Positions 4,685 to 38,331 of a stretch of 64,000 nucleotides of DNA are shown here, piece by piece. The notes below the pieces were generated by a model. The model had not been told where the DNA came from, did no database searches, and was given only the letters and a program-made list of their open reading frames with translations. The DNA is from Patescibacteria group bacterium (GTDB lineage: Bacteria > Patescibacteriota > Patescibacteriia > XYB2-FULL-38-15). Both the position numbers and the translations under genes were made by a program. Where the stretch lies: NCBI GenBank assembly GCA_041650995.1, contig JBAZJZ010000002.1, positions 13,344 through 77,343 on the forward strand, given 5' to 3'. Position 1 is the stretch's first letter. Each line of letters opens with the position of its first letter.

Positions 4685-4713
4685 TTGACAATTTAGAAAG
4701 AACATTGTAATAT
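4685..4713 (+). promoter_or_regulatory. rRNA promoter P2 (TTGACA-17-TAATAT)
   Basis: ttgacaatttagaaagaacattgtaatat; tandem with P1 as typical for rrn operons. Confidence 0.55.
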
Positions 4714-4810
4714 ACTTTTGTCGCTAGAAATAGCGACATTTAGTATCCATTTCTTTGACAACTTAAAGTAATAGAAGTACGCCAATTTGTTCTAGTTCTC
4801 AAACTAGAAC

Positions 4811-8393: not shown

Positions 8394-8396
8394 AAT

Positions 8397-8846
8397 ATGA
8401 AAATAAAAAATGTAATGGTTAAAAAAGTTATCACAGTTAAAAGGGAGCAGACTTTAATTGAAGCGGCTCAAATTTTCGTTAAAAATAATATTAGCGGCGC
8501 GCCAGTCGTTGATGGGCGAGGAAAATTAGTAGGTATGCTTTCAGAAAAAGATTTATTCAGAGCATTGTATCCAGACGTAAGGGATATTTTAAAAGACGTC
8601 CGCCTTTGGCTTGGCAAAGAAAAAATTAAACATCGCGTAGAGGCCAAGCGAGGAATAATGGTAGAAAAATTAATGATTAAAAAAATTATTTCCATTGATC
8701 CCGACGCAGAAATTTTGGAAGCGGGATCAATAATGCTCACTACTAAAATTCATCGCCTGCCCGTTGTAAAAAATAAAAAATTAATTGGTATTGTTAGCCG
8801 CCCTGATATTTTTAGAAATTTATTAAAGGCAGATCTCCAAATCTGA
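8397..8846 (+). CDS. CBS-pair domain protein
   Basis: Two CBS motifs (GAPVVDGRGKLVGMLSEKDL; HRLPVVKNKKLIGIVSRPDI). Confidence 0.8.
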   Translation: MKIKNVMVKKVITVKREQTLIEAAQIFVKNNISGAPVVDGRGKLVGMLSEKDLFRALYPDVRDILKDVRLWLGKEKIKHRVEAKRGIMVEKLMIKKIISIDPDAEILEAGSIMLTTKIHRLPVVKNKKLIGIVSRPDIFRNLLKADLQI

Positions 8847-15839: not shown

Positions 15840-15860
15840 CCTAAATTATTGATACTGGCT

Positions 15861-15895
15861 ATTGCGGAGGCGGGAGTTCGATTCTCCCTGGGGTA
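15861..15895 (+). repeat. Direct repeat: duplicated 3' half of tRNA-Ala(CGC) (attgcggaggcgggagttcgattctccctggg)
   Basis: 33/34 nt identical to 15804-15836, 22 nt downstream of the intact tRNA. Confidence 0.7.
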
Positions 15896-16133
15896 AATCT
15901 CCTTGGAGCGATTTAGGGAAAATAGCCAAAGATTTCTGAAATCTTAACAAAAGCAGAAGAAGGGGATTAGCTTGGAAGAAGAAAATGTTTTTTGGAGAGA
16001 TGAAATGGAATTTCCTGATGGTAGAAACGAACAAGTAGATATAAAGATTTGGAAAAGAAAATTTAGTTCAGGGCAAGCTTCAATAGATTTATGGATCTGG
16101 CCAAAAGCAAAAAAATATTATCAAAAAAACGAA

Positions 16134-16162
16134 AAAACGCCCTAAAATAAAGGGCGTTTTTT
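16134..16162 (+). terminator. Rho-independent terminator
   Basis: aaacgccctaaaataaagggcgtttttt. Confidence 0.55.
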
Positions 16163-16206
16163 AAAAATGTTTCACGCTAAACATTTTGTTGCCCGGTGAA
16201 ACACTT

Positions 16207-16555
16207 TTAGAGAAACCCATATAACCAGTTTTCTTCTCGCTGTTCAAATTTTTTCTTCCAATCTTCAAATTGAATTTTTTTCATGCCAAAAAGACGGCCT
16301 TCAAGCAATGGGATAATTTTTTCATTTATCGTTTTTCTTTTTCTAACCAAAAGTAGGGCATAATGACGATTTTGATGATTATAGATATGTATTGTTTTCC
16401 TTTAAATTTAATCCATCACGAACCATTTTAACCAGATCTTTATCCGAGGCGTGCATTTTTAATTGGAAAACGGGAACTTCTTGATTATTTTGTTTTACCC
16501 ACATAAAAGAACCCTCTCCAACAATTAGACCAGCAATAAAATCGAGTGAAAGCAT
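16207..16555 (-). pseudogene. Frameshifted LAGLIDADG homing endonuclease gene
   Basis: Hand translation of minus strand: MLSLDFIAGLIVGEGSFMWVKQNNQEVPVFQLKMHASDKDLVKMVRDGLNLKENNTYL then stop. The +1 frame continues ...RHYALLLVRKRKTINEKIIPLLEGRLFGMKKIQFEDWKKKFEQ. DFIAGLIVGEGSF is a classic LAGLIDADG dodecapeptide. Confidence 0.55.
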
Positions 16556-16807
16556 AATTCATTAAAAATTAATTTATTATGTTTTTTAATTTTATCATAA
16601 AATGAGTGACGGAAATTAATTTTTGTGGATAACTGCTGAGAAATTTATTGGTGTAGGAGGAAATAGACGAGTATTGGTGTTGTAAGGATGGGGTGATCCC
16701 CGAGGGACGCAGTAGTTAGTATGATTAAAAAGTAAATAATAATCTTAACATTGTGTATATATTAATTTACACATATCCCTTGAACTAAAATTTGTTCACA
16801 TTTGTAA

Positions 16808-16836
16808 TTGACTTTTTTAAAAAATAATGGTATAAT
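16808..16836 (+). promoter_or_regulatory. Consensus sigma70-like promoter TTGACT-17-TATAAT, about 240 nt upstream of surface-protein cluster
   Basis: ttgacttttttaaaaaataatggtataat. Confidence 0.5.
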
Positions 16837-17075
16837 AATAATGTAAATAAGATAATTAATTTAGAAAAGCAACCCGGTTCTTTTATCTATATAATTATCT
16901 AAACAATTTAATATTAAGGGAAGTAGAGATTAAGGTTTCTTTCCCAATTAGTACCTAAGTACCCTTGCCCCACGCCAATTTGTGTGGGAGGTGTACTTTG
17001 TGCCCTCAGAAGGTACTTGTACCCTTGGAACAGAAATTTTAGTCTTAGGCTTTACCTTGAAATAGGTGATCGACG

Positions 17076-17759
17076 TTGTTTATGAAAAAAATTTTCATAA
17101 AAGTCATTATAATCACTCTTGTTTTTATTTCTCTTGTTGCTTTTTGGAGAGCGCCTCTTAGCTTGGCATTAATGAATTCTGAAAGTTACATTAACTGGAT
17201 GGATTCTCTAAATTTTGGCGGAGAAGAAACTTCCTTTTCGGCAAGTTATAAAATTCAAGATACCTTGGGGGAAATTGGCACAGGAAAAATAACAAGTACT
17301 AGCTACGCTGGCTTAATAGGGTTTCGTCAGGCAGAAGCAGACCCCAAAATGACTTTTGATATTTCTAAAACTTCAATTGATTTTGGTACGTTGACCACAA
17401 ACGCCGTTTCTTCAGATAGCATCACTATCACAACTACAACTAATGCTGTGAATGGATATGTCACAACAATTCATGAGGAAGAAAATTTAAAAACTGTAGG
17501 CGGGGCGGATATTGATGATGTGGCAGACGGAACAGTTTCTCCCGGCGCAGAAGAATATGGGGTTAGAACGTCTGGCGCGGCGGGACAGATGAACGGAGCA
17601 GACACGGCTATTACAATTTCTCCACAAGCAGTCGCATTATATAGCAGTTGGGTAAATGGAAGCACAGTGACAGTTACTTTTAAAGCAGCAATTTCCTCGA
17701 TGACAGCGGCCGGAGCCTATGCCCATTCAGTCACATTGATTTCCACAGGAAGATTTTAA
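17076..17759 (+). CDS. Secreted protein, family A (paralogue of 17816 C-terminal region)
   Basis: Signal peptide; shares ...TTTNAVNGY(V/T)TT... and C-terminal ...ISTG(R/T)F with next ORF. Confidence 0.65.
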   Translation: MFMKKIFIKVIIITLVFISLVAFWRAPLSLALMNSESYINWMDSLNFGGEETSFSASYKIQDTLGEIGTGKITSTSYAGLIGFRQAEADPKMTFDISKTSIDFGTLTTNAVSSDSITITTTTNAVNGYVTTIHEEENLKTVGGADIDDVADGTVSPGAEEYGVRTSGAAGQMNGADTAITISPQAVALYSSWVNGSTVTVTFKAAISSMTAAGAYAHSVTLISTGRF

Positions 17760-17815
17760 AAAATTATTTATAAAAAAGTTATTTATTAACGATCTGTTCA
17801 GCAGATCCTAAAAAT

Positions 17816-18901
17816 ATGAAGAACAGAAGTGTCCATAAAAAAATTGTTCAAATCACCGCGGTGAGTATGATTTTGTTCGCCGCTTTTCCGCTTTTGTCAG
17901 TGCATGCCGCGGCTATGACGAGTATCACGGACACACTGACTCGTCTAAAAGCCAGTACGGCTGCAAATCATACTATTAAGTTTGTTCAACTTACTGGCGT
18001 AGGGGCTGGACAAAAAATAAAAGTCACTTTTCCCACGGGGTTTGCCATGGGTTCAGTAGATTACACGGATGTGGATTTGGCTGTGGGTGACAGTAACAAT
18101 TGCTCCACGGCATCCTTTACGGACAAAACTTTAGCAGCGGCAGCTTCGGGGGCAACTTGGGGCGCGACTGTTGGCGGGCAAGTTCTCACTTTTGTTTCTG
18201 ACTCGGATACAATTACTGCCGATAGATGCGTTTTGATTGAAGTGGGAACCAACGCGACGGCAGGAGAAGCCGGCGATCAACAAGTGACAAACTCCACGGC
18301 CGGGAACGATAAGCTAATGACTTTAGCCACAACTACGGCAGCCGACGCAGAGATTGATGCAGGCTCTTTGGCTCTCTCAATAATTTCAGATGATCAAGTA
18401 ACAGTAACAGCCACAGTTAACGCGACTTTTACTTTTGAAATTTCTTCCAACTCTTGCGCCCTGGGGACTCTTTCAACCGCAAATGTCCAGACTTGCAGCG
18501 TAACTTTGACTACAAGCACTAATGCTGTTGGCGGCTACACCACCACAGTAGTAGGAACAGCTACGGGCGCTGAATTGATTCACTCTAATTTAACAGATAA
18601 TATTGATAATGCCACCGGCATAGAGGTTAACGCTGGTTCAGAAGAATTTGGAATTGGCACGAGTGATACGGGTGTTGACATAGTTACTGAATCAGATTGT
18701 GCTGGAGCTGACGGCACTATCGTGGCAGACGCGGAATCAATTGATACAATCGGAGACAATACGCCAGCTTCGATGGCAACGGCTTCTGGTCCGGTTTCCT
18801 CTGACGCGACAACAGCATGTTTTGCCGCGTCTATCGCGGCAACAACCGTTGCCGGTTCTTATACGGCCACAACGACATTTATTTCCACCGGAACCTTTTA
18901 A
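17816..18901 (+). CDS. Secreted protein, family A/B (N-terminal domain paralogous to 20141 ORF)
   Basis: Signal peptide; N-terminal DTLTRLKASTAANHTIKF...VTFPTGF matches DTLSRLKISTAANHDIRF...ITFPAGF of ORF 20141; Thr/Ala-rich. Confidence 0.65.
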   Translation: MKNRSVHKKIVQITAVSMILFAAFPLLSVHAAAMTSITDTLTRLKASTAANHTIKFVQLTGVGAGQKIKVTFPTGFAMGSVDYTDVDLAVGDSNNCSTASFTDKTLAAAASGATWGATVGGQVLTFVSDSDTITADRCVLIEVGTNATAGEAGDQQVTNSTAGNDKLMTLATTTAADAEIDAGSLALSIISDDQVTVTATVNATFTFEISSNSCALGTLSTANVQTCSVTLTTSTNAVGGYTTTVVGTATGAELIHSNLTDNIDNATGIEVNAGSEEFGIGTSDTGVDIVTESDCAGADGTIVADAESIDTIGDNTPASMATASGPVSSDATTACFAASIAATTVAGSYTATTTFISTGTF

Positions 18902-18970
18902 CTTTAAATTATTTTTTAAAATAACAAACAAGTCGCGATAATTTTATTCTCGACCTGTTAGGGGGAAGAT

Positions 18971-19975
18971 ATGAAAAAAATTTTTTTCGTGAGTTCGCTT
19001 GCCGCTTTAATTTTTGCGTTAGCGCCGATTTCCGTATCTGCCATAACGGTTTCCCCGCCAATCATTGAATTTGACGCGCGGCCAGGAGACACGATTGTTG
19101 ACACCATTAAATTGTATAACGAAACAAGGGAAGCGCAGACTTTGACTGGCGCAGTACAAAGTTTTAAGGCGTTGAATGAAACTGGAGCGCCAGCCTTTCT
19201 TCCTCCTGAAGAATCGACTGATTTGGCGACTTGGCTAAAGCTTGATGAATCTACGGTTTCCTTGGCGGCCGATGAAAGAAAAGATATTTTATTTAGCATC
19301 GCCGTTCCCCTCAATGCGGAACCTGGTGGCCACTACGCCGGAATTCTTTGGACACCGGGCGGCTCGACCACGCTTCAAGGAAGCGGCGTTGGCGTTACCA
19401 TTAAAACCGGAACATTAATTTTAGTCAGAGTCGCGGGGGACATTACTGAGACGGGCAGATTAGTCAGTTTCACGGCAGACAGATCCTCTTATAATTATTT
19501 GCCCGCGAATTTTTCTTTTCGTTTTGAAAATTTGGGCAATGTTCACTTAAAACCAGTCGGCGCGATTGAAATTAGTAATTTATTGGGGAGAAAAGTTACA
19601 TCTCTTCCGGTGAACGGAGATTTATCAAATGTCCTTCCAGAGTCAATTAGAAAATTTGACGCGACTTGGCAGAAAACAGAAGTTCCTCGCGGCGCGTCCG
19701 AGTGGCAAAAAGAAAGAGAAAATTTTGCTTGGGGTAAATATACAGCAACTCTCATTTTGGATTACGGGATAGACGGACAAGAAACCACGGCATCGCTTGT
19801 CTTTTGGGTTTTTCCATGGCGCGTAACACTTTTCTATCTGGCCATAGCTCTGATCATTATTCTTCTCGTTGTTTTAGGCATCAAAAGTTATAATAAGTGG
19901 CTTATCAAAAAATATAGCCAGCAAAATAAACCAGAAGATAATCAGAAAATTGAAGATCAAAAAATTGAAGAGTAA
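18971..19975 (+). CDS. Membrane-anchored surface protein (signal peptide plus C-terminal TM anchor; DUF916-like architecture)
   Basis: N-terminal signal, C-terminal hydrophobic helix LFYLAIALIIILLVVLGI followed by charged tail. Confidence 0.55.
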   Translation: MKKIFFVSSLAALIFALAPISVSAITVSPPIIEFDARPGDTIVDTIKLYNETREAQTLTGAVQSFKALNETGAPAFLPPEESTDLATWLKLDESTVSLAADERKDILFSIAVPLNAEPGGHYAGILWTPGGSTTLQGSGVGVTIKTGTLILVRVAGDITETGRLVSFTADRSSYNYLPANFSFRFENLGNVHLKPVGAIEISNLLGRKVTSLPVNGDLSNVLPESIRKFDATWQKTEVPRGASEWQKERENFAWGKYTATLILDYGIDGQETTASLVFWVFPWRVTLFYLAIALIIILLVVLGIKSYNKWLIKKYSQQNKPEDNQKIEDQKIEE

Positions 19976-20140
19976 TTCAATTATTTCATTGATGTCCTCT
20001 GATTTTTCGGAGGACAAAACGAGTTCGTTGAATTTTCAAAAAACAAAAAACAAAAATCAAAAGTCAAAATTTGAATTTTAAAGTTTCACTTTTAATTTTT
20101 TGACGTTTGTCTTTTGAGTTTTGAATCTAGAAGGAGGCGC

Positions 20141-22405
20141 ATGAAAAAAATAATCAAAAGAAAAGGCGTCGTAATTTTAATCGCGGTTTTTGTTTTAACT
20201 AGCCTTTTTACCATATTTAATAATCAATCGGTCGCCAGCCAGCTTTCTTCAGTGAGCGATACGTTGAGCCGGTTAAAAATTAGCACAGCCGCGAATCATG
20301 ATATTAGATTCGCGACTCCGACCGGCGTTGACGCCCCAACAGACACAGTCACGATTACTTTTCCGGCAGGTTTTAATCTTGGGACGATTGCTTTCGGCGA
20401 CATGGATTTGAATGTTGACGCGGCTTGCGACGGTGTTTATGAAATTTCAAAAACTTTAGCGGCCGCTCCGGGGCTAAGTCCAATTTGGGGGGCAGTGGCT
20501 GCAGGCCAGATAGTTACTTTAACTGCGCCAACTGATGCCGCAGCTGGAGAAATTGTTGCTGCATCTTGCGTCCAAATTTTGATTGGTACAAACGCGACAG
20601 GAGGTGTTAGCCAAATTACAAATCCAGCGAGTATTGGAAGTCACGTAGTTCATATTGGCGGAACTTTTGGGGATTCAAGCAATATTGCCGTGGCCATTGT
20701 TACAAATGACCAGATCGGCATTGGCGCGAATGTTAACGCGCCGACCGGAGGAGGCGCGCCGGGTACTGGCGCTACGCCGCCGATTGTTTCAAATATTAGA
20801 GTTGTAAATATTTTACAAACTTCAGCCTCTGTTCTTTGGGATACTAACGAGCCCGCTACTTCAAGAGTGAATTATGGCTTGTCTGACAGTTATGGATCTA
20901 CGGAAACCGGCGATGGCGGCGGGTTGGTAACGAGCCATAGAGTTGATTTATCAGGATTAACCGCAGATTCAATTTATCATTTCCAAATAGTGACGGCCGA
21001 CGCGGAAGGCGCCACGACTACCACGGCCGATGACATTTTCCAAACTCTTTCAGGTTCAGACATAACTGCTCCCATAATTTCTGACATTCAAGTTATAAAT
21101 ATCACAGAGACTGGAGCGACTATAATTTGGACAACAGACGAACCGGCAAATTCAAAGGTAGAATATGGTTTAACCGACTCATATGAATTAGGCGAAGTAA
21201 GCTCCACCGATTTTGCTACTTCTCATAGTTTGGTTATTTCCGGGCTTTTAGGGAATACCACTTATCATTTTCGCGTGACTTCGGCCGATTCCTCCGGCAA
21301 CGCGGCGGTTTCCGGCGATGATACTTTTACGACTTTAGCCCCACCCGACTCGGATCCTCCCATTATTTCAAATATCAGAGTTATCAATATTACTGAAACG
21401 TCGGCAACTGTGACCTGGGAAACGAATGAACGGTCTACTTCTCGCGTGAGATATGGGCTAACCGGAGCGTATACCACGGGAAATATTTTTTCTGCCGATT
21501 TAGTAACAACACACAGCATCAATTTAATTTCTCTGACTCGCAGCACGCTTTATCATTTTGAAGTTTCTTCATCTGACGGGTCCGGAAACACGGCAACTTC
21601 GGGTGATCAGATTTTTACCACTTTGCCGGACGCCGTCCCTCCAGCTAATGTTACGGATTTCACGGCGGTCCCAACCGCGGATTTAACAATTCTTTTGAAC
21701 TGGGTTAATCCAACTGACCCAGACTTTGGCGGAGTTTTGATAAAACGAAGTTTTACAACTTATCCAACAAATCCGGCTGAGGGCGAAATAGTCTTTGATG
21801 GGGTGGCTACTTCATTTGAAGATACTGGTATTACTTCCGCAAATTATAATCAGCCAATTTATTATACAGCTTTTGCTTATGACGCGGCCGGAAATTTTGC
21901 TTCAGGAGCAATGGCAGAAGCAACAATTTCAGTTGAGATTACTTTGGACATTAAAGCTTGGCCGGAAAAAAGATGGCCGCGGAGCGGGAATTGGTCAACA
22001 ATAGGTTTGGTTGATTTAAGGGAACCAATAACCGGAACTATCGCAGATGAAGGATCGGTTACAACTTCTTCTCTTGGGCAGGGCGCGGTTCAGTTTACTT
22101 CAATTTCCGGCGGAAATTATGACATAGGTTTTAAAGGTCTATCTCATTTACGAAAAATTTTGCGCGACATACCGCTTTCTAACGGCGTAAATTCAGTGGA
22201 CTTTACCTTAGGAAATATTTTTTATCTTTTAGCCGGAGATGTTCATCGTTCATCTGATAATATGGTAAACGCCCTGGATATTTCCACCCTTTTAGGTGCG
22301 CTATCCACGGGAAACGAAGTTACTGATTTAAATCGTGATACTGGCGTCAACTCTTTGGACATTAATATTTTGTTGGCGAACCTGATGAGAGTAGGGGACA
22401 ATTAA
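20141..22405 (+). CDS. Cell-surface protein: family-B N-domain, 4x fibronectin-III-like repeats, C-terminal dockerin-like domain
   Basis: RBS aaggagg before ATG 20141; four repeats (PIVSNIRVVNI...YHFQIVTAD etc.); C-terminal DLNRDTGVNSLDINILLANL and DNMVNALDISTLLGAL dockerin-type repeat pair. Confidence 0.7.
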   Translation: MKKIIKRKGVVILIAVFVLTSLFTIFNNQSVASQLSSVSDTLSRLKISTAANHDIRFATPTGVDAPTDTVTITFPAGFNLGTIAFGDMDLNVDAACDGVYEISKTLAAAPGLSPIWGAVAAGQIVTLTAPTDAAAGEIVAASCVQILIGTNATGGVSQITNPASIGSHVVHIGGTFGDSSNIAVAIVTNDQIGIGANVNAPTGGGAPGTGATPPIVSNIRVVNILQTSASVLWDTNEPATSRVNYGLSDSYGSTETGDGGGLVTSHRVDLSGLTADSIYHFQIVTADAEGATTTTADDIFQTLSGSDITAPIISDIQVINITETGATIIWTTDEPANSKVEYGLTDSYELGEVSSTDFATSHSLVISGLLGNTTYHFRVTSADSSGNAAVSGDDTFTTLAPPDSDPPIISNIRVINITETSATVTWETNERSTSRVRYGLTGAYTTGNIFSADLVTTHSINLISLTRSTLYHFEVSSSDGSGNTATSGDQIFTTLPDAVPPANVTDFTAVPTADLTILLNWVNPTDPDFGGVLIKRSFTTYPTNPAEGEIVFDGVATSFEDTGITSANYNQPIYYTAFAYDAAGNFASGAMAEATISVEITLDIKAWPEKRWPRSGNWSTIGLVDLREPITGTIADEGSVTTSSLGQGAVQFTSISGGNYDIGFKGLSHLRKILRDIPLSNGVNSVDFTLGNIFYLLAGDVHRSSDNMVNALDISTLLGALSTGNEVTDLNRDTGVNSLDINILLANLMRVGDN

Positions 22406-22424
22406 TTAAGTATCTATATATTGT

Positions 22425-25052
22425 ATGAGGAGGATAATTTGTACAATCGCCGCAATCGGATTTAGTTTTCTTCTCGGCCATTTTGCGCTCGCCGCTCGTT
22501 TTGAATTGTCTCCGGCTTCCACGGGGTTTATTATTGGTTGTGATTCGGCGGTGAATATTGAAATAGATACCGCAGGAGAAACCTCTGACGCCGCTAATAT
22601 TTTAATTCGTTATAATCCCGCGCAAATTGAAATCCGCGACGCTAATCCATCAGCAAGCGGAATCCAAATAAGAAATGGCAACGCTTACGAAGCCTATGCT
22701 GATAATATTGTTTTGCCGGGGGAAGGGTTGATCCGCCTGACGGGATTTTCTTTTTTAGAACAACTCACGGGCAGAGCCACTTTTGGCACAATTATTTTTC
22801 GTCCGAGAGCAGGTGCGGTTGGCACTGCGTTGACCGTAGAATATGTTGCCGGCAGCACGATTGATAGTAACATTGCCGAATATTTGACAAGTGACGATCT
22901 TTTGACCGGCGTGACAAATGGTTCTTACACCTTTAGCGGCGGTTCTTGCGTGGCTGATGTTACGCCACCGAGCGTGTTAAACCCCGATCCAACGCCGGAC
23001 GAACGCGACGTACCCCTTGATACAAATGTTATTTTTGATATTCGTGACAGTCAGTCAGGAGTTGATTTGGATAGTTTAACGGTAAACGTGGATGGTATAA
23101 TTTACACGCGAGGAGGAATAAATAGATTTTCTTTTGTCGGGACTCCGGAGTCATACGCCGTGGCGATAAATCCGGACACAGATTTTACTCCGGGTGTGCC
23201 AGTACTTGTGGAAATAAACGCGGCAGATTTATCCGGAAATAGGATGACGCCTTATCGCTATATTTTTAATCAGCCAGCTGCCCCACCGCCCGAGCCGCCG
23301 TCTTGCGAAGCGCTTGGGTGTATTTCACCAGCCACTTGCACGGCCGAGCCTGTTTTGCCAGAAGAAATTACTGAAGAGCCGACCGTTCCGGAGTCACAGA
23401 GGTTAAATCTTGGAGATTTTTCATTTTATATTGCCGACGGAACCCTTCAAATTTATCCAAATAGAAATGATGAGCTTACGACTTTACAAAATTCACCACT
23501 TATAATTTCTATTTCAGAAAATAAATTTCCTCGAGAGGTGGAAAGAATAGTTTTAACCTTAAATAGTTTTTCTTACCTTTTGGGTTATAATGAAATTTCC
23601 GACGCACGGCAAACGACAATCCAAACGCCCTCTACTGCGGGAAAATTATCAAGCGTGATTTTAGTTGATTATAAAGATGGCTCTCATGACAGAATTCTTG
23701 GAACGCTTTCGCTTTTGTCGCGCGGTTTTATTTGGCAGGGAACAGCAGCAAATAAATTGTCCGGCGCCAAGGTGACGCTTTATGAGAGCACGGCGGGTTC
23801 CAGAGTTTGGGATGCCACTCCTTATCATCAAATCAATCCACAAATAACGGACGCTTCTGGTCAGTTCGCTTTCCTGGTTCCGCCGGGGCGATATTATTTA
23901 CTTGTCCAAAAGGACGACTACCGTGATCAAACCACATCGGTTTTTGAAATAGCAAACAACGTTGTTAATCAAAGTGTAGAAATTCTTATAAAACCGCCGT
24001 CGCTTTCCGAAGTTTGGAACCCCGAAGGGCCGATTACTGAAAATATCCAGAATGTTGCGAAAAATTTAGGAGAAAAAACAATTTACGCCTCTGAGATTGT
24101 CCGCAAAGATGTTTTGGACAATCCTGAAGTAGAAAAAAATAATGAAAGTATTGCCGTGCCGACCGTAGCCGCGGTCGCGATCGTAAGTTATGGAACAGCA
24201 ATTTCTCTTGGCTCGCTTTTACCATTTTTACAATTGATTTTTACCCAGCCGCTTCTCCTTCTTTTCCCAAAACGAAGAAAAGGTTGGGGCATTGTTTATC
24301 ATTCTTTATCAAAAATGCCGGTTGATCTGGCAATAGTTCGTTTGTATGAAAAAGTGACAAACCGCCTGGTCCAAACTCGCGTCACGGATAAGGAAGGCCG
24401 TTTTGCTTTCTTTGTCCAGCCGGGTCAATATTTTATCAAGGTTGTTAAACCAAATTTTGCTTTCCCGTCCAATTTTGTAAAAGATATAAAAGAAGATGTT
24501 AAATATTTAGATATTTATCACGGCGAAGAAATTACGGTGACGGAAAAAAATACGCTCGTGACGCCGAACATTCCGATTGATCCGGTAGAGGGCACAGCTA
24601 AACCTGATAAAAAAATTGTTCTCGCGCATTTTGGAAGAAAGGCACAAAACATCATCGCGCCGCTCGGCATTCTTGCTGCTGCTATTTCGGTTTTAATTTC
24701 GCCGCAACTTTGGATGGTCGCGGTTCTGGCTGGCCACTGCCTTCTGTACGCACTTTTTAGACGTTTGGCCAGAAGCAAAAAACCAAAGAGCTGGGGCATT
24801 GTTTACGAAAATCAAACAAAGGCGCCGGTGGGGCTCACAGTGGCAAGAATTTTTGAAACGGAATACAATAAGCTTTTGGAAACTCAAGTTACGGACGGTC
24901 GCGGGCGATATTCGTTCTTGGTTGGCAATAATGCTTATTATGTGACATTCAGCAAGCCTGGCTTTGCGCCGAAACGGACTGAGACGATTGATCTTCGCGG
25001 GAGAAAAGAAGGCGCGGCCGTAGGGTTGGATGTGGGGTTGGATAAAGTATAG
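22425..25052 (+). CDS. Large surface protein: N-terminal cohesin-like beta-sandwich, three carboxypeptidase-regulatory-like (CarboxypepD_reg) domains, two internal TM segments
   Basis: Signal peptide; repeated WGIVY...VTD(K/G)(E/R)GR(F/Y)(A/S)F...PG.Y modules at about 23760, 24290, 24790. Confidence 0.55.
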   Translation: MRRIICTIAAIGFSFLLGHFALAARFELSPASTGFIIGCDSAVNIEIDTAGETSDAANILIRYNPAQIEIRDANPSASGIQIRNGNAYEAYADNIVLPGEGLIRLTGFSFLEQLTGRATFGTIIFRPRAGAVGTALTVEYVAGSTIDSNIAEYLTSDDLLTGVTNGSYTFSGGSCVADVTPPSVLNPDPTPDERDVPLDTNVIFDIRDSQSGVDLDSLTVNVDGIIYTRGGINRFSFVGTPESYAVAINPDTDFTPGVPVLVEINAADLSGNRMTPYRYIFNQPAAPPPEPPSCEALGCISPATCTAEPVLPEEITEEPTVPESQRLNLGDFSFYIADGTLQIYPNRNDELTTLQNSPLIISISENKFPREVERIVLTLNSFSYLLGYNEISDARQTTIQTPSTAGKLSSVILVDYKDGSHDRILGTLSLLSRGFIWQGTAANKLSGAKVTLYESTAGSRVWDATPYHQINPQITDASGQFAFLVPPGRYYLLVQKDDYRDQTTSVFEIANNVVNQSVEILIKPPSLSEVWNPEGPITENIQNVAKNLGEKTIYASEIVRKDVLDNPEVEKNNESIAVPTVAAVAIVSYGTAISLGSLLPFLQLIFTQPLLLLFPKRRKGWGIVYHSLSKMPVDLAIVRLYEKVTNRLVQTRVTDKEGRFAFFVQPGQYFIKVVKPNFAFPSNFVKDIKEDVKYLDIYHGEEITVTEKNTLVTPNIPIDPVEGTAKPDKKIVLAHFGRKAQNIIAPLGILAAAISVLISPQLWMVAVLAGHCLLYALFRRLARSKKPKSWGIVYENQTKAPVGLTVARIFETEYNKLLETQVTDGRGRYSFLVGNNAYYVTFSKPGFAPKRTETIDLRGRKEGAAVGLDVGLDKV

Positions 25053-25114: not shown

Positions 25115-28100
25115 ATGTTTAGTTCAGGAGAAGAAAAACCGAATATTAGAATACCATCCCAAGGCGGAACCAACTTGACTCTGTTGGTGTTTGTCTTGGG
25201 TATTTTGTCATTAACAAGTATTGGGATAATGACGCTTTCTGTTGTGAAACAACTCCGGCCAACAGCTTTTACGGCGATTAATAAGCAATTAAACTATCAA
25301 GGTAAATTACAAAATAGCGGAGGGATTACGGTGGCGGATGGTAATTACTTAATGAAGTTTTCTATTTATGATGCGGCTTCCGGTGGGTCGCGGCTTTGGA
25401 CAGAATGTGGGACGACCGGTACGCCGACTGCCCGTACAGTCGCGGTCGCGAACGGGGTTTTTTCCGTAATGCTTGGCGATACAAATTCCGATTCTTGTCC
25501 GGGTGGAACCGATTCAAACGCCATCAATTTAGATTTTAATAGTGATAGTTATTATCTTGGTCTAACCGTGGAATCGGATGCGGAAATGGAACCAAGAAAA
25601 AGAGTTGGCGCTTCGGGCTACGCTTTCAACGCCGATTTATTGGATGGACTTAACACTTCCGCCGCCGGCGGTTCGTTCGCTTTTGTGCCGGTGACAGACG
25701 GAAGCGGACATTTAACTTTGACGCAAAATTTAACTTTGGGTGGAGTGATGAAGGCGAGTGACGGCGCTGTCGGCGCTCCGAGCTATACATTTACAAGCGA
25801 CCTTGATACGGGGCTTTACTATTCAGCAACACAAATAAATGTTGGTGTTGGCGGAGCAGCGGTGGCAAACGTAAGTGCTTCAGGATTAGCCGTAGACACG
25901 GTCAAAACTTTAACCGCAACAACATTAACTTTAAAAGGTACTGTTGCCGACGGTGGAACTGCGGTTGGTGCAACAATTGGTTCCAACAATACTCTTTCCA
26001 CTGCCGGGGCGAAACTTGTTAGTTTTGTAAATAACACTACCGAAAAAGCATATATTGATAAAGACGGCGTGGGGTATTTTTCTGGTGGAAATTTTTCCGG
26101 CCTCTCTGCTTCATCCGCGGTCTATACTGACGCTTCAAAAAATTTAACTTCAACTGCTCCGACTTCCGGCTCAATCGGATACTGGTCTCGCACGAGCACA
26201 ACTTTGTCTCCGGCGACGGCGAATGATGTTGTCGCAGTTACTGGTAATTCCGGAGATCTCTTAACTTTAACTTCAACTGCCACGGGTGCGGACAACAAGG
26301 CTTTAAACATTGCCGCCTCTGGCGCGACAACTGGCACAGACTACGGCGCATACATTTCAAACACCGGCGCGGGGACAACAAATGTGGGCCTCTATGTCAC
26401 GGCCTCTGGTGCGGTGACAAATAATTACGCCGCGATTTTCGCCGCAGGAAATGTTGGTGTTGGTATAACTTCGCCGGCTTACACTCTTGATGTTTCCTCA
26501 TCGGGTACGAGAGCAGTTAATGCTATCACATCAAACAATAGCGGTTATGCAATTTACGGAACAGCTTCCGCCACCGGCGCAGTCACAAACTATGGTGTTT
26601 ACGGCGCGACGGCTGGTGATAGTGGCCGCGGCGTTTATGGTACTGCTTCAGCCACTGGCGCAGTCACAAACTACGGCGGATATTTTTCTTCCGCGGGAAA
26701 TAGTGGCCGCGGCGTTTATGGTACTGCTTCTGCTACCGGCGCAGTCACAAACTACGGCGGTCTTTTTTACGCAGCAGGAAATACCGGGTATGGTGTTTAT
26801 GGTCACGCTACGGCTACCGGCGCAGTAGGTAATACAGGAGGTTATTTTAGGGCTGACGGAGGTAGTGGCGTTGGCGTAACAGGCACAGCCCCAACCACCG
26901 GCGCAGTCACAAACTACGGCGGATATTTTTCTTCCGCGGGAAATAGCGGTCGAGGTATTTCAGCAGTCGCCACGGCCACTGGCGCGGTTACAAACATAGG
27001 CGGTGCTTTTTCCTCTGCTGGCGACACAGGCATTGGCGTGCAGGGCTCGGCAACGGGTAGTGGAGGTGTAAATTACGGTGTGTATGGTACCACATCTTCC
27101 GCTACCGGCTGGGGTGGTTATTTTTCCGGCGGGCTTGGTTTGTATGCCTCTGCAGCTCGCATCAATTCTCTTACCGCCTCCTCTGCAGTTTACACTGATG
27201 CCTCAAAAAATTTAACTTCAACAGCTCCGACTTCCGGCGCGCTTGGATATTGGTCTCGCACAGGCACGGTTTTAAGCCCAACAACTTCTGGCGATACTGC
27301 TACAGTGGCGGGGTTGAACGTTAATTTTGGTCCAATCACCAATGCTTACGTCGCCATTAACCCCTGGTATCAAAATTCTATTGGTTCCGCAAATGGCATA
27401 GGTCTTCCAATGAATCGTTTGCTTGGTTCCAATACCGGCCGCCACACAGTCACAACTACTGGTTTTTCCGGCGGAACTAGTGTTTTATACGACAGTTTTT
27501 ATGATTCCGCGGCAATAATTCCTTATGGGGGAACCGGTACGGTGGAAGTTGACTTTAATCCCCAAATGGGATGGACAGATAATACGGCAAGTCCGAGTTT
27601 TACCTACGAGAATGGTATGCTCGTGATGAGTTTTTATTACACTTATTTTCCGACTAATATTACGGTGGAAATGTATCATTATAATTCCGTCTCGCTCGTG
27701 GATGAGTGGACTACAATTTATACCACGGCAAGCAATAATAAAAATCCGTTAATTGTTAATACATCACCGACAATTACTTATATTAAAAAGATCAAATTTA
27801 CTTTTTCCGGTGGTGGTGACCCGGGTTTGGGCATAAGAATTGCTGAGCTAGAATGGTTCCCAACTCGTGAAAGTTCGGCGAATCAGTTGGCCGTTATCCC
27901 AAAATATTATAATCAGAACATGGATGTTTCTTGGACGAATTTGAATATGAAAAAGACGACTGATTGGAGCACGACCGCGACAATTTCAAATGCCGGGGCC
28001 GCGTACTTTGTCGGACCAGTCGGCATTAATGATACTTCCGCGGACGCATCTTTAGAGGTTGTCAATGACGGTTCGGGAGATTCGTTCTTGGTCGCCGACA

Positions 28101-31100
28101 CAAACGACGGCGACACTACGCCATTTGTTATTCAGGCGGACGGAGATGTTGGCATTGGTACGGCGGCTCCGGTTAGTTTGTTACATTTAGTAAAAGATTC
28201 AACTTATAACAGTGAAAATACGGGAGCTATTAAAATAACAGACTCAACTTTGACTGACACAGGTCTTATTATAGGAACGGATGCGACTAATGATATTGGT
28301 TACATTCAATCCCTAGACCCCGGAACGAGTTATACAACTCGGCCATTGATATTAAATCCAAACGGGGGTTATGTCGGCATCAGTGATATTTCTCCCGCTG
28401 CGCTTTTTACTGTTGGTAGTGGCGACCTTTTTCAGGTTAATTCTTCCGGCGCTATCGCCGCGGCAACGGGCATTATTTCCAGCGGCACAATTCAGTTTAC
28501 TGGCCTCACGGCTTCTTCCGCCGTCTACACTGACGCTTCAAAAAATTTAACTTCCACCGCTCCGACTTCCGGCGCGATCGGATATTGGTCTCGGAGCGGA
28601 ACAACTTTATCTCCGGCAACGGCCAACGATGTTGTTTCAGTTTCGGGTACCGGCGCGATCGCGATTACCGGGACAAGTTCGGCAGCTGGTGGATATGGTA
28701 TTTACGGCACTGCCACAGACGCAACAGCAGTAGCAAATTACGGCGGATATTTTATAGCCGCAGGAACGGGGAGCGGCACAGCAGGTGTTTACGGCGAATC
28801 TACAGCGACAGGCGGTTTTAGTCCATTTTATGGTGGTTATTTTACCGCGGCTGGTAATCTTGGAGTCGGTGTCCAGGGCGTGGCTACGGCCACAGCCTTT
28901 GCTACAAATTATGGCGTTTACGGTCAGGCTGATGGAGATACGGGCGTTGGTGTTAGGGGTTTAGCCAGCGGGACTGAGGGGATAAATTACGGCGGTTATT
29001 TTTGGTCAAATGGTCCGGGCGGCTATGGAGTTTATGGCCGGGCTAACTCTGGTACGGGTACAACTTATGGTGTTTATGGCGAAGTCATTTCTTCAAGCGG
29101 TTGGGCGGGATATTTTGACGGCGGGCTTGGTTTGTACGCTTCCGCGGCGAGAATAGATTCTCTCTCTGCCTCCTCCGCCGTCTACACTGACGCTTCAAAA
29201 AATTTAACTTCCACCGCTCCGACTTCCGGCGCGATCGGATATTGGTCTCGGAGCGGAACAACTTTATCTCCGGCAACGGCCAACGATGTTGTTTCAGTTT
29301 CGGGTACCGGCGCGATCGCGATTACCGGGACAAGTTCGGCAGCTGGTGGATATGGTATTTACGGCACTGCCACAGACGCAACAGCAGTAGCAAATTACGG
29401 CGGATATTTTACCGCGGCTGGGACAGGCACTTTGACTGCCGGAGTGTATGGTGAAGTTACTGCCACAGCGGACAATATTGCCGGAGTTTACGGGAAAGCC
29501 ACCAACACTGGCGCTTACATAAATTACGGCGGCGCGTTTTTTGCCAATGGTGAAAATGGTCGTGGTGTTTATGGCGAGGCGGTTTCCAATGCCGCAGCTA
29601 CAAATTATGGAGGGTACTTTGTCGGCGGCGGCACAGCTGCCAACACAGCTGGCGTTTACGGACAGGCGACAAATACTGGCGCGGTAGCGAACTACGGTGG
29701 GTATTTTTTGGCGGAAGGTACGGGTTCTGCCGCGGCTGGCATCTATGGCGAAGCTTCTGGCGCCGGCTCGGTTTATGGTGTTCAAGGAGCTGCAACTGAT
29801 ACTGGTGCAGTAGCAAACTATGGCGGATATTTTACCGCAGCAGGAACAGTAACTGGAGCAACCGGGGTTTATGGCGAAGCAAGTGGCGCAACAAATTTAG
29901 CATTGGGTGTTCATGGAGTTGCTTCAGCCACTGGCGCAGTCACAAACTACGGCGGTGTGTTTACCGGTGCCGGCAATACGGGACGCGGCGTTTATGGCGA
30001 AGCCACGGCCACCGGCGCTTACACAAACTACGGCGTTTATGGCATGGCTGTTGGCGATACTGGCAGGGCTGTTTATGGAACGGCCCAGGCCACTACTAGC
30101 GCAGTGAATTATGGAGGTTATTTTGTGACGCACGGAGATGGCACTTTTGCAGCTGGTGCTTATGGCGAAGCTTCTGGCGCCGGCTCGGTTTTCGGCGTTA
30201 TTGGTTATGCTTCAAACAGCGGCGCGGTCACAAATACTGGCGGAGCATTTACGGCCAACGGTGAAACTGGCCGGGGCGTTTATGGCCAGGCTTCAAATTC
30301 TGCTGCCACTGTAAACTATGGTGGTTATTTTATAGCAGATGGTGCAGGCGCAGGAACAGCTGGTGTTCGTGGCATTGCAAACGGAGGGGCCGCAGTGTAT
30401 GGCGTCTATGGTTCTACTATAAGTGCGAATACTGGTGCAAGCGGTGTCTATGGCGAGGCTTCTGGCGCGGCCAGCGAGGTTATTGGCGTTCAGGGCGCAG
30501 CATCCAGTTCTGGCGCAGTAGCAAATTACGGCGGATATTTTGCTGCATTTGGGTCGGGTACTGGTGCAAGTGGTGTTTATGGCTTAGCCACGGCTGTTGG
30601 TATAGTCTATGGCGTTCAGGGGCGAGCGTCGGCTGTTGATAATGCTACAAGTTATGGTGGATATTTTACAACAGAAGGATATACCGGTCGCGGTGTTTAC
30701 GGTTACGCTGAGTACATCGGCGCCACAGTAAACTACGGCGGTTATTTTGAAGCAAATGGTGCAGGCGCGGGCACAGCCGGCGTGCGCGGTATTGCAAATG
30801 CTAATGCCGCTGTTTACGGCGTCTATGGTTCAACCTCTGGCCAAGCTTCTGGCGCAGTTGGTGTCTATGGCTTGGCTTCTGCTGCAGCAGATGTTATTGG
30901 CGTCCAAGGCGCAGCAACAAGTGCCGGCGCTTATGAAAACTACGGCGGATATTTTTATGCTGCGGGTAATTCGGGTAGGGGTGTTTATGGAACGGCAGTA
31001 GCCTCAGGCGCGGTTACAAACTACGGTGGATATTTTCAGGCAAGTGGTAATTCCGGCAGCGCTGTCTATGGATTAGCATCTGCCACTGGCGCAGTCACAA

Positions 31101-34100
31101 ACTACGGCGGGAATTTTCGGGCTGATGGAGATTTAGGTATTGCTGTTTCTGGTTGGGCTTCTGCAAGTAGCGCAACAGCGAATTATGGTGGGAAATTTTT
31201 AGCAGGGGGTACGGGAGGAGCATATGGGGTATATGGCGAAGCAACTGGCCTTTCGGGTACAAATTATGGTGTTTATGGGAAAGGTTCAGTAGGTGTTTAT
31301 GGTTATGTTAGCGCAACGCAGTATGGTTATTTAGGGGATTCCACCTACGGCGTTTATGGCCGCGGTACAATTGGTGTTTATGGAACAGACGGGACTAGAT
31401 ATGGACAATTGGGGTATGCTTCGGCAGGTGTTTATGGAACAGACGGGACTAGATATGGACAATTGGGTACGGGAAGTTATGGTGTTTATGGTTATTATGA
31501 CGCCACGCATTCAGGCTATATTGGTGGCGCGAGTTATGGAATTTACGGAACCGGTGCTGATGGCGAGGGGGTGCACGGCGAAGCAACGACTGGTTATGGC
31601 GTTCGCGGTAATGCAACAACCGGTTATGGTACGTCAGGATTTTTGTCTGGTGAAACGGGACGAGCAGTTTGGGGTTCTGCTTACAACGCGAGCGGTACAA
31701 CAACTTATGGTGGATATTTTAGTTCGTCCGGCACTTCTGGTTATGGTGTTTATGCGGAAGCAACTGCGAAAAGCACTGTTTATGGTGTTTACGGGGTTGC
31801 TTCAGATGCAGGAGCGGGCACAAGTTACGGAGGGTATTTCACATCTGCTGGCACGACAGGCCGCGCAGTTTACGGCTCAGCCTCAACTACTGGAGCAACA
31901 ACAGCTTATGGCGGTTATTTTACATCTGCTAGTGATTACGGTCGTGGTGTTTATGGTGAGGCTACTGATACTGCCGCAGTTCAAAATTATGGCGGTTATT
32001 TCTCCGCCGCGGGCGGGGCGGGCATTGGCGTTTATGGTGTAGCTTCTGCCGCAAGTACTGTTTATGGCGGCTATTTTGAAGCTACGAATACAGGAGCTGT
32101 GACAAATTACGGCGTTTATGGGAAAGCCGCCGGAGACACCGGTTATGGAGTTAGGGGTGAGGCTTCTGACACGGGCGCGGTAGCAAATTATGGCGGATAT
32201 TTTTCCGCAGCTGGAACAGGTGGCGGAGTGGGTATTTACGGGTCCGCGACGGGCGCTTCTGGTACAAACTATGGAGTCTACGGCGCGGTGACTTCAGCCG
32301 CTGGCTGGGCAGGGTATTTTACCGGGGGCTATGGTTTGTATGTCAGCGGTTCAGCTAGTCAAATGACCGGTGCCGCTTCTGGCCCGACTTTAACGGTTGC
32401 TGCAACCTCCGTCTCCGCAAATAATATTGCTTTAAAAGTTACTTGGGCTGACAGTTATCTCACAACCACCGACGGCGGCCCTTTAAAAATCGTTTCCACA
32501 ACTGACACCGGTTTTACCACTACGGGTGATGCCGCGACCAGACGCGTTGGTTTAATCCAGGTTGACGCGAATGTTACTTCAGCCTCAAGCGGAAATTTTA
32601 TTGCCTTTAACTCTGATGTTAATGGCACTCCGGACGCAGAATTCAGGGTGTCAATGGCTGGTGCGACTTATGCTGATGGCGCTTATTCATCGGCTGGCGC
32701 TGACTTAGCCGAAGTTTTTGATGTGAGTGATTTATCTTTATCTTTGGGAGATTTGGTGGTGGTTGACAATGTTACTGGTAAACTTAAAAAATCATCCGCT
32801 GCTTATGAAGAAGGATTAGTTGGGATCGTGACTGATGCGACAATGGCAGCTTTTATCGGCGGAGATTCAGATGGTGACCTCGGCCCGGATCAAAGAGTTA
32901 TTACTTTAATTGGTAGAATGTCTTTGACAAAAGTTAATGATGAAAATGGCACAATTAATCCGGGAGATTTGTTAACGTCTTCATCAATGCCTGGCGTAGC
33001 AATGAAAGCCACAAAACCCGGTTCGGTGATTGGTCGGGCATTAGCGTCATGGAGCGGCCCGGGGCAAGGAACGATTGAAGTTTATGTTAATCAAAAATGG
33101 CATTCAGGCGGAACGATTACTACTGATGGCACGATTTCTTTTTTCAATGATGATTTTACTTTCAATAAAACAGAAACAGCGACAGAAATTATTCAGGGTT
33201 ATAACTCCAAAGGTTTAACTTTTCGCGGTTCTGGTTGGGATGGCGCTACGGCGCAAAATGTGGAAATGAAAATTAATAATGTTGTCGCGAGCGCGTCAAA
33301 TTACAAATTAGCAGTTTTAAATAATGCAGGGCAGGAAGTTGCTTATCTTGATCAGGCCGGCGCGTTTGGTCTTTCCGGGAAATTTTATCCGGCCTCGCCA
33401 ACAGGCGCGCAAACCGATGCTTACATTTTCTATCGTAACAATCGCATAAGAACGAACGCCGCTGGATGGGCGACAGGCTCGTTTGATTTTGCCGAAATGT
33501 TCTTATCGCACGAATTGCTTGAGGCTGGAGACGTGGTTGTGTTAGACGAGGCGACAAATGAGTATGTAAAAAAATCAACCACTACTTATAATAATATGGC
33601 GCTCGGCATTGTTTCTACTGAGCCGGGATTTTTAGCCGGAGCCAATGTTGATTTTGACGACCCTTCGGCCGATCAAGGTTATCCGATCGCCCTGGCTGGC
33701 CGCGTGCCGACAAAAGTTTCTGCGGAAAACGGTCCGATTCGGCCTGGCGACTTTTTAACAACTTCCGCGACGCCTGGCGTGGCCATGAAAGCGACTGAGT
33801 CGGGTTTGATTATTGGAACAGCGCTTGAAAGTTTTGATGGCCCTGGTGTTGGTTTAGTGAAAGTTTTCGTTAATCTCTCTTGGTATAACGTTATGGGGGA
33901 GACGACGCCAGTCGGAGAATTGGCACAGCTCACACTTACTGGTGATTTAAATATGAATGGCAATTATATTTTAAATGTCGGGAAGATTGTTGGGTTGGAT
34001 GAAAAATGGAGCATTGATGAAAATGGTATCTTGAAAGTAAAATTAATTGCTGAGGACGCGGGCGAGAAAGAGATGTTTGGAGTAACTTCAGATAAAGTAG

Positions 34101-38315: not shown

Positions 38316-38331
38316 AAGGGAGGGGTTAACA

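Follow-up and report, generated by a model that had tools for sequence, protein, structure and literature searches.

The stretch of DNA analyzed here (64,000 nucleotides from a Patescibacteria group bacterium, called the window below) carries, at positions 17076-25052, five co-directional open reading frames (ORFs) with short gaps between them, O1 to O5, which probably constitute the operon of a Pam-type pilus in which a cohesin–dockerin pair, not a peptide bond, appears to connect the base subunit to its membrane anchor. Cohesin–dockerin connectors are known above all from enzyme complexes that break down cellulose. The case combines protein architectures, homologies, gene order, a donor-strand motif and the alternation of fused and split anchor genes in related loci, as read from sequence, predicted folds and comparison; the evidence that this architecture is real and widespread is good, and there is moderate confidence in the anchoring mechanism. 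A sequence-only reading of the same ORFs, with positions that agree with ours, had proposed a modular, cellulosome-like surface complex.

Cultivated bacteria of the candidate phyla radiation (CPR) live attached to other cells, and their attachment machinery is barely known. The radiation may account for 15-50% of bacterial species (Troman et al., abstract; bioRxiv 10.64898/2026.03.03.709456), and the Pam pilus came to light only in 2026, when two filaments were solved from a single Saccharibacterium, Ca. Mycosynbacter amalyticus (Troman et al., 2026). Pam pilins have an N-terminal β-sandwich and a linker strand, which the neighboring subunit receives in its truncated Ig-like C-domain; the tip protein PamT has the C-terminal domain (CTD) only; the PapD-like chaperones PamC and PamD carry a C-terminal transmembrane (TM) helix; and PamR (RbmA-like), a terminator that contains Fn3 domains, is anchored by a TM helix and has one more strand at its N-terminus, was proposed to stop elongation and to hold the filament at the membrane (Troman et al., 2026). 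The system is usher-less and has a conserved 'tail fibre-like' neighbor gene, and the preprint mentions neither cohesins and dockerins nor WxL and DUF916 (Troman et al., 2026). In full-text literature searches, no paper turned up in which cohesin–dockerin pairs are related to pili or to CPR surface systems.

Pilin subunits and assignment to the Pam system

Membership of the Pam system was judged with the NCBIfam models NF058579 and NF058581, which are derived from Troman et al. (2026). O1 matched CPR_pilus_PamT (E=4.1e-17, 62.4 bits, equivalog cut-off 240), and CPR_Pam_pilin_C (NF058581, cut-off 55 bits) matched both O2, over residues 210-361 (40.0 bits, E=3.9e-10), and O1 (37.2 bits, E=2.9e-9). 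Pilins encoded beside homologs of O3 in other loci (cited here by L numbers) exceed the 55-bit cut-off, with 157 bits in L087 (Saccharibacteria) and 74 bits in L014 (Kerfeldbacteria).

O2 has the layout of a polymerizing pilin, a β-sandwich N-domain followed by a linker strand and an acceptor domain (Table 1), and this architecture was found again in 67 related loci. The linker follows the consensus xVxVxAxV, which is conserved among 50 distinct pilin linkers. A search of O2 against a copy of the Protein Data Bank (PDB) that did not hold PamA and PamB gave no match, and a profile of the pilin C-domain searched against PDB and Pfam recovered neither WxL nor any other known family. O1 consists of the acceptor domain only, which it has in common with O2 (36% identity, E=4e-15); upstream of this domain the donor-strand motif is absent, with a score of -1.5 in a position-specific scoring matrix (PSSM) of pilin linkers, and CTD-only proteins as a group lack the motif as well (median -3.0). 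O1 resembles PamT in this and is probably the subunit at the tip or the one that nucleates the filament. O4 shares the N-domain of O2 (36% identity, E=7e-30), in an alignment that extends through the linker strand.

The sequence-only reading had described the three ORFs upstream of O4 and O5 as a paralogous secreted family with shared N- or C-terminal domains. The sharing itself was borne out, for the N-domain between O2 and O4 and for the C-domain between O1 and O2, while O3 proved unrelated in sequence to the pilins and does not belong among these paralogs. Judged from these matches, the family is the pilin set of a Pam-type pilus assembled by donor-strand exchange. Because of the NCBIfam matches, the domains shared by O1, O2 and O4, the predicted fold of O3 and the pilins of L087 and L014 that pass the cut-off, the locus can be regarded as a divergent Pam-type operon.

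A predicted membrane-tethered chaperone

Pam chaperones are PapD-like proteins with a C-terminal TM helix, and O3 is of this kind by its predicted fold. Its AlphaFold2 (AF2) model (predicted local distance difference test score, pLDDT, 88.7) has two β-sandwich domains and a TM helix at residues 283-318. The best Foldseek matches of this model were to Enterococcus faecium WxLIP (9i1y/9i25, 5e-12), followed by the chaperones of chaperone-usher systems CfaA, CsuC, Caf1M, FimC, PapD and SafB (1e-10 to 1e-7). At the sequence level a profile of O3 matches EfmWxLIP1 at 0.0024, placing the family within DUF916/WxLIP, and more than 421 homologs were found, mostly in Patescibacteria. O3 is therefore best described as a predicted PapD/WxLIP-like chaperone that would cap pilin C-domains. 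The presence of a Pam-type chaperone in the DUF916/WxLIP family points to a shared origin of the Pam and the Firmicute WxL/Csc systems.

The dockerin-bearing protein O4

Apart from its pilin-type N-domain and linker strand, O4 has no match to a CTD hidden Markov model (HMM), so that no acceptor domain is recognized, and its only hydrophobic segment is the signal peptide, so that no TM segment is present. The N-domain is followed by a Fn3 region, which also matches the Fn3 structures of titin and RPTP in PDB, then by a conserved, putative β-sandwich 'X' module and, at the C-terminus, by a dockerin-like module.

On its own, O4 matches Pfam Dockerin_1 (PF00404) with E=0.012-0.029 and 15.0-16.3 bits, short of the gathering cut-off of 22.9. 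When the last 165 residues were considered together with their four homologs, all five sequences matched Dockerin_1 (best 1.4e-5), and the resulting family profile matched solved dockerins, namely Clostridium thermocellum Cel9 (4fl4_A, 7.7e-5) and 5k39_B (1.9e-4), then 2yik and CelD. In addition, the syntenic dockerins of L014, L034 and L088 score 35-38 bits and thus exceed the Pfam cut-off by themselves. Compared with the duplicated dockerin pattern of calcium loop plus helix (D-x-N/D-x-D...N..D), the second repeat of the module, DLNRDTGVNSLD, reads as a canonical calcium loop that is invariant across the family, and the first, GDVHRSSDNMVNALD, has a two-residue insertion and keeps the conserved D/N positions. 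Taken together, these matches identify the end of O4 as a genuine but divergent dockerin. The X module is conserved along with the dockerin in P0005-P0008, L001, L003, L006 and L007 and belongs to no Pfam family. Because this conserved, putative β-sandwich always precedes the dockerin, it can be likened to the X module of type II dockerins, and the profile match to the type II X-dockerin 5k39_B reaches into it.

The cohesin-bearing, predicted membrane anchor O5

O5 is organized as a signal peptide, a cohesin-like domain, a Big_5 domain, a Pro-rich linker and an anchor module in which CarboxypepD_reg-like domains alternate with hydrophobic segments; its middle region matches no Pfam family. Neither Pfam Cohesin (PF00963, nothing at E<=1) nor a sequence search of PDB nor a five-sequence profile revealed a cohesin in O5, so that a structural model and transitive homologs were needed to recognize one. 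Word-indexed homolog searches with the N-terminus of O5 and the C-terminus of O4 gave four matches each and missed even orthologs.

The AF2 model of residues 1-285 (pLDDT 80.6) contains two β-sandwich domains. Its best full-length Foldseek match is the cohesin-FN3 double module of Clostridium perfringens GH84C (2w1n), and almost every one of its top single-domain matches is a cohesin, among them CaCohA2 (6kgf_C, TM-score 0.71, root-mean-square deviation 3.0), the non-cellulosomal Archaeoglobus fulgidus cohesin 2xdh, 5n5p and 2zf9, so that types I, II and III are all represented (TM-scores up to 0.71-0.73). An exhaustive search with a profile of this domain yielded 2,624 cluster representatives in which it mostly stands right after the signal peptide. 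Of 55 sampled homologs, 18 match Pfam Cohesin (best 7e-17; P0129 reaches 52.7 bits against 24.1, over the same residues), 29 contain Big_5 and 28 contain CarboxypepD_reg; Big_5 repeats are strong in homologs, and some members of the family have two cohesins or a cohesin together with a dockerin. Alignment of the O5 domain with syntenic cohesins that pass the Pfam threshold gave an hhalign probability of 96.6% (E=6e-10). By its modeled fold and its homologs, O5 begins with a genuine but divergent cohesin.

Most of what had been read from the letters of these two ORFs was upheld. The dockerin-type end of O4 and the cohesin-like start of O5 are supported by the family profile, the predicted fold and the Pfam-matching homologs described above, and the three CarboxypepD_reg-like domains and TM segments of O5 correspond to three Pfam stretches and two hydrophobic segments of about 40 residues. 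Four Fn3-like repeats had been proposed for O4; three are recognized by Pfam, and the fourth gives no Pfam match when scanned alone. The HMMER searches that had been suggested returned CarboxypepD_reg and fn3, and the gathering scores of Cohesin for O5 and of Dockerin_1 for O4 were not reached; the suggested AlphaFold modeling did produce a cohesin fold. Two modules are to be added to the earlier description, the X module before the dockerin of O4 and Big_5 after the cohesin of O5.

Fused and split anchors in related loci

The relationship between O4 and O5 becomes apparent when related loci are compared. In L010, where O3 is 86% identical, the whole O1-O6 gene order is conserved and the O5 ortholog is 81-86% identical. 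In L012 (O3 60% identical) and L013 (O3 48% identical), a single polypeptide of 1092 or 1038 amino acids, respectively, corresponds to residues 1-595/598 of O4 followed directly by residues 299/310-874 of O5. These fused proteins are 52-57% identical to the respective parts of O4 and O5 (52-54% between the O5 anchor module and their C-terminal half), and precisely the X-dockerin and cohesin-Big_5 segments are absent from them. Therefore, the cohesin–dockerin pair sits at the place of the peptide bond that, in these relatives, connects a Fn3-bearing pilin-like subunit with a membrane module.

To place these forms in a wider context, 77 GTDB species-representative loci anchored on homologs of O3 were surveyed with custom HMMs. 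Dockerin and cohesin genes were both found in 31 of the 77 loci and a dockerin gene only in seven; the fused form, with pilin N-terminal domain (NTD) and anchor in one protein, occurred in ten, none of which has a dockerin; and the remaining 29 had neither form, 15 of these loci breaking off downstream. The dockerin gene nearly always follows the chaperone gene directly (its start lies -52 to +159 bp from the chaperone gene end), and the cohesin gene comes within 20 bp or about 1.1 kb further on. In the latter arrangement the intervening gene encodes a protein of about 380 amino acids, which in L014 itself has a weak Pfam Cohesin match. Many loci (L014, L022, L028, L034, L063, L076, L077 and others) have one dockerin gene and two cohesin genes, one for a protein of about 380 amino acids (cohesin plus C-terminal TM helix) and one for a protein of about 800 (cohesin plus anchor module). 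The gene pair in the order dockerin, then cohesin, also occurs in five further metagenomic contig families, and the subtypes of dockerin and cohesin are concordant in 35 of 36 pairs (Fisher 1e-7). Saccharibacteria loci, with the order [CTD][chaperone][pilin][chaperone], lack the cohesin–dockerin pair.

The fused state of the nearest outgroups makes a derived origin of the split form the simplest reading, and probably the right one. It may have arisen by recombination of an existing cassette of an X-dockerin gene and a cohesin-Big_5 gene into the anchor gene; such a cassette stands on its own in L001, L003 and L007.

Many dockerin proteins of these loci are short (about 290 amino acids) and have no pilin N-domain. 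In 23 of 33 such proteins, a donor-strand motif is found at the mature N-terminus, where xVxVTATV followed by a Pro-rich spacer (for example, AQVSKQVTVTATVPELPP) comes right after the signal peptide. These 23 score above the 99th percentile of a background of 709 ORFs (linker PSSM; Mann-Whitney p=1e-15). Their layout is the one described for PamR, in which Ig domains follow a strand at the N-terminus, except that a dockerin occupies the position of the TM helix. A third arrangement, which combines the strand with the anchor, is represented by a 570-amino-acid protein encoded directly after the chaperone gene of L035 (positions 2980-4692), which has the anchor module alone behind an N-terminal donor-strand-like motif, ELVITAQV, and is the nearest to PamR.

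Several loci also encode giant proteins (2158 to more than 4600 amino acids) that end in a Pam-type pilin C-domain (L014:1-8799, L053:2-7774, L062:2002-8742, L076:2-7687 and L088:1-6477). Their layout suggests tip adhesins that carry only an acceptor domain, analogous to FimH and PapG and far larger.

Proposed assembly and anchoring

A hydrophobic signal-like segment forms the N-terminus of every protein of the locus by hydropathy and, because of these signal sequences, O1 to O5 are all expected to be exported by Sec. O3, held in the membrane by its C-terminal helix, would cap the open C-domain of the pilins. O1 is proposed to start the filament at its distal end, because it has an acceptor domain and no donor strand, and O2 would then polymerize, its linker strand QVTVTATV entering the acceptor domain of the preceding subunit. 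O4 would be added once and last, after which growth would end, a role proposed because it has the pilin N-domain and linker strand and no acceptor domain. Its Fn3 and X domains would form a stalk, with the C-terminal dockerin putatively bound to the N-terminal cohesin of O5, the C-terminal half of which is predicted to be embedded in the membrane. Jointly, O4 and O5 would play the part of PamR in Ca. Mycosynbacter amalyticus, terminating the pilus and tethering it to the cell, and in close relatives the same part would fall to the single NTD-Fn3-anchor polypeptide. The split form would offer a calcium-dependent, potentially reversible joint in its place.

A broader proposal is that many CPR lineages outside the Saccharibacteria have recruited cohesin–dockerin as the standard joint between pilus and cell, with a dockerin subunit (donor strand, no acceptor) as chain terminator, and that this joint arose at least once by fission of one anchor gene; we regard the chances of this being correct as evenly balanced.

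Weighing the alternatives

Several points count against an anchored Pam-type pilus of this design. The locus comes from an uncultured organism, as a metagenome-assembled genome (MAG), and is known from its genes, comparison and predicted folds alone. The NCBIfam scores of O1 (both models) and of O2 (the pilin C-domain model) lie under the curated cut-offs, the dockerin of O4 scores below that of Pfam, and the cohesin of O5 has no direct Pfam match. The PSSM score of the O4 strand QIGIGANV falls only between the 95th and 99th background percentiles, its even positions being conserved and its odd ones not. The subtype co-variation statistic ignores phylogeny, and the two cohesin genes per dockerin gene in many loci bear on stoichiometry and partner choice. 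Finally, the polarity of the Pam pilus, that is, which end is the tip, is itself only predicted (Troman et al., 2026).

If the middling fit of this strand to the pilin consensus is taken at face value, and given that strand insertion by O4 is deduced from sequence, O4 might stand outside the O1/O2 filament and form with O5, through cohesin–dockerin, a separate surface fiber or adhesin, its pilin-like N-domain then serving as an exposed head for binding; a Fn3 stalk with an outward N-domain would suit such a function. We consider this unlikely, since N-domain and linker are exactly the parts that make the subunit-subunit contact in the Pam pilus (Troman et al., 2026), the dockerin proteins without an N-domain retain just the donor-strand motif, a pattern for which a free adhesin offers no ready explanation, and the O4 gene directly follows that of the chaperone.

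The cellulosome-like display that had been suggested for these genes would make O5 a scaffoldin that shows dockerin-bearing cargo, enzymes or adhesins, for attachment to a substrate or host independently of a pilus. Parts of that suggestion hold: the cohesin and dockerin modules are genuine and adjacent, they belong to one surface system, and the organism is a CPR bacterium with a tiny genome. The size of the cohesin family and its members with two cohesins or with cohesin and dockerin would also be in keeping with display, and more dockerin proteins may lie elsewhere in the genome. The window, however, contains one cohesin and one dockerin as judged by the custom HMMs, and no glycoside hydrolase, carbohydrate-binding module (CBM) or multi-cohesin scaffoldin was found among O1-O6 and the neighboring genes. 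Identity with a cellulosome was rejected on these grounds. As the dockerin carrier is a pilin paralog, the pair stands in for a covalent link in orthologs, and in 31 of 77 loci the genes lie among those for pilins and chaperones, pilus-independent display is very unlikely.

A similarly small chance is given to the possibility that the two modules have the cohesin and dockerin folds and do not bind each other, having other partners or a structural or calcium-binding role, with their adjacency a product of operon history. Neither module passes the Pfam thresholds alone, a single dockerin gene is accompanied by two cohesin genes in many loci, and binding is deduced here from adjacency, co-variation and exclusivity with the fused form; yet the two are adjacent repeatedly, in five or more independent contig families and in 31 of 77 species loci, the pair and the fused form are mutually exclusive, the subtypes co-vary, and the point of fission coincides exactly with the inserted pair.

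In Pap and Fim chaperone-usher pili the tip is made first. The chance is slimmer still that polarity is reversed, with O4 and O5 as a membrane platform that nucleates the filament and O1 as the last cap, or with growth at the distal end: a membrane-anchored donor-only subunit could in principle come first, given that Pam polarity is a prediction, but membrane-tethered chaperones deliver subunits at the membrane, as in tip-first chaperone-usher pili, and the giant acceptor-ended proteins of related loci look like tip adhesins.

Features of the locus and neighboring genes

The coordinates of the features are collected in Table 1. The window contains a 16S rRNA gene and scattered tRNAs. O3 is 100% identical to a protein of an NCBI 'Patescibacteria group bacterium' MAG, and the closest named relatives of this ultra-small CPR bacterium are Candidatus Falkowbacteria. 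The ATG start of O4 at 20141 is also used in public gene calls. Promoter and terminator scans gave nothing above chance, the sole notable site being TTGACT-17-TATAAT at 16808-16836, and a scan with the PADLOC defense library found nothing relevant.

Table 1. Coordinates of O1-O6 and their domains (positions are those of the window)
Feature	Position	Strand	Remarks
O1	17076-17759	+	227 amino acids, secreted; ATG at 17082 is the likelier start
O2	17816-18901	+	361 amino acids; polymerizing pilin
O2 N-terminal β-sandwich domain	17930-18394	+	after signal peptide; custom NTD HMM 7.6e-53
O2 linker, putative donor strand QVTVTATV	18395-18418	+	PSSM 22.2
O2 C-terminal acceptor domain	18431-18901	+	after linker strand; custom CTD HMM 2.7e-37
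O3	18971-19975	+	334 amino acids; predicted membrane-tethered chaperone
O3 C-terminal TM helix	19817-19924	+	model and hydropathy
O4	20141-22405	+	754 amino acids from ATG; secreted donor-only subunit, proposed pilus terminator and stalk
O4 pilin-type N-domain	20237-20737	+	NTD HMM 7.6e-61
O4 linker strand QIGIGANV	20711-20734	+	end of N-domain; PSSM 8.2
O4 Fn3 domains, three	20780-21601	+	Pfam Pur_ac_phosph_N 2.5e-20 and fn3 4.8e-15, three stretches each
O4 fourth Fn3-like segment, unconfirmed	21626-21931	+	kept in fused orthologs
O4 β-sandwich 'X' module (KAWPEKR...)	21932-22225	+	candidate from conservation; immediately before dockerin
O4 dockerin-like module	22226-22402	+	two candidate repeats of calcium loop plus helix; dockerin (DOC) HMM 2e-20
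O5	22425-25052	+	875 amino acids; predicted membrane anchor protein
O5 cohesin-like domain	22497-22949	+	AF2 and Foldseek; family matches
O5 Big_5 Ig-like domain	22956-23267	+	Pfam Big_5 weak (0.045); modeled with pLDDT >90
O5 anchor module	23322-25049	+	Pfam CarboxypepD_reg 3.7e-19, three stretches
O5 CarboxypepD_reg-like domains	~23751-23960, 24297-24494, 24777-25004	+	alternate with hydrophobic segments
O5 hydrophobic segments, two	24147-24266, 24642-24746	+	about 40 amino acids each; hydropathy
O6	25115-34570	+	3151 amino acids; directly downstream of the five-gene set

O6 carries a membrane anchor at its N-terminus, Gly-rich repeats of the 'GVYG' type in their hundreds, and a tail rich in Pro, and a giant ORF occupies the same position in L010, L012 and L013. 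It matches no Pfam family and, by the custom HMMs, contains no pilin, dockerin or cohesin domain, so it was ruled out as a pilus subunit. Further downstream of the surface-protein cluster, a 235-amino-acid protein (38287-38994, + strand) has a region with a zinc-metalloprotease motif (Peptidase_M10, 4.7e-7). Upstream of the operon, the gene-poor gap 15841-17076 contains short broken ORFs around a 58-amino-acid ORF (16379-16555, - strand) with a LAGLIDADG-type motif, LDFIAGLIVGEGSF, and probably represents the remains of a homing endonuclease. In L012, small 23S_rRNA_IVP (PF05635) genes interrupt the series of pilus genes, at 4605-4781 and 8029-8427. Several GTDB/NCBI records with clearly CPR-type loci (L017, L019, L031, L034, L041, L058, L064 and others) bear the titles 'uncultured Gammaproteobacteria', 'Bdellovibrionales', 'Pirellulales' or 'Nanoarchaeia', and mislabelling of these MAGs is probable, for example in the case of the 886-kb chromosome OZ246416.1.

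Implications

The locus extends the Pam system to the part of the radiation that includes Falkowbacteria, Kerfeldbacteria and Parcubacteria, where the filament appears to be anchored in another way, by a cohesin–dockerin plug as opposed to a TM helix or a continuous polypeptide. If this is true, it would be the first defined structural role of cohesin–dockerin in pilus biogenesis, would carry the biology of these modules well beyond cellulosomes and would provide a natural case of gene fission bridged by an interaction module. A calcium-dependent coupling that can be broken or exchanged could explain easy shedding of pili or the swapping of filaments on one anchor, and it predicts that pilus attachment is sensitive to calcium and to ethylenediaminetetraacetic acid (EDTA). 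In addition, the architecture supplies a rule for annotating CPR surface proteins now called 'hypothetical', of which there are thousands; about 2,600 cluster representatives belong to the cohesin family by itself.

Comparison with known systems

The locus resembles the described Pam system in being CPR-specific and usher-less and in having a CTD-only tip protein, a PapD-like chaperone with a TM helix and a giant fiber-like gene nearby; it differs in having one chaperone gene instead of two, sequences below the NCBIfam cut-offs and a terminator that is not a TM protein. Compared with PamR by description, O4 is likewise a donor-only subunit with Fn3-type domains, although it retains a full pilin N-domain, and where PamR has its own C-terminal TM helix the anchor here would be a second protein reached through dockerin and cohesin.

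Among chaperone-usher pili, the Pap and Fim systems offer parallels in the acceptor-only tip, donor-strand polymerization, a groove-capping chaperone and a last subunit that stops growth (PapH), and the fold of O3 matches PapD, FimC, Caf1M and CsuC. In contrast to these systems, the chaperone here is predicted to be membrane-tethered, the donor strand is an internal linker instead of an N-terminal extension, the pilins have two domains, and Pfam and NCBIfam scans found no usher-like protein among those of the locus. The WxL/WxLIP (Csc) clusters of Firmicutes (PMC10599100; 9i1y, 9i25) share with O3 the DUF916/WxLIP family and its two Ig-like domains plus TM helix. For WxLIP, insertion of a β-hairpin strand into the WxL partner has been predicted (PMC10599100), whereas the partners of O3 would be Pam-type pilins and not WxL-domain proteins.

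For the joint itself, the closest parallel is the type II cohesin/X-dockerin anchoring of C. thermocellum (CipA XDoc to SdbA, OlpB and Orf2p), in which a C-terminal X module and dockerin dock an extracellular structure onto a cell-bound cohesin protein. The O4 family profile matches 5k39_B, the O5 model matches type II cohesins, and the cohesin protein of one relative carries SLH domains. Here, however, a pilus subunit would be anchored and not an enzyme scaffoldin, enzymes and CBMs are absent, the host is a CPR bacterium, and the anchor is a membrane module, mostly not SLH domains. The non-cellulosomal cohesins and dockerins of A. fulgidus (2xdh) and C. perfringens GH84C (2w1n), both among the top fold matches of O5, are similar as single modules outside cellulolytic systems. 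Those examples connect enzymes or toxins, or are without an assigned role, whereas the pair described here lies within a pilus operon and the fused ortholog defines what it connects.

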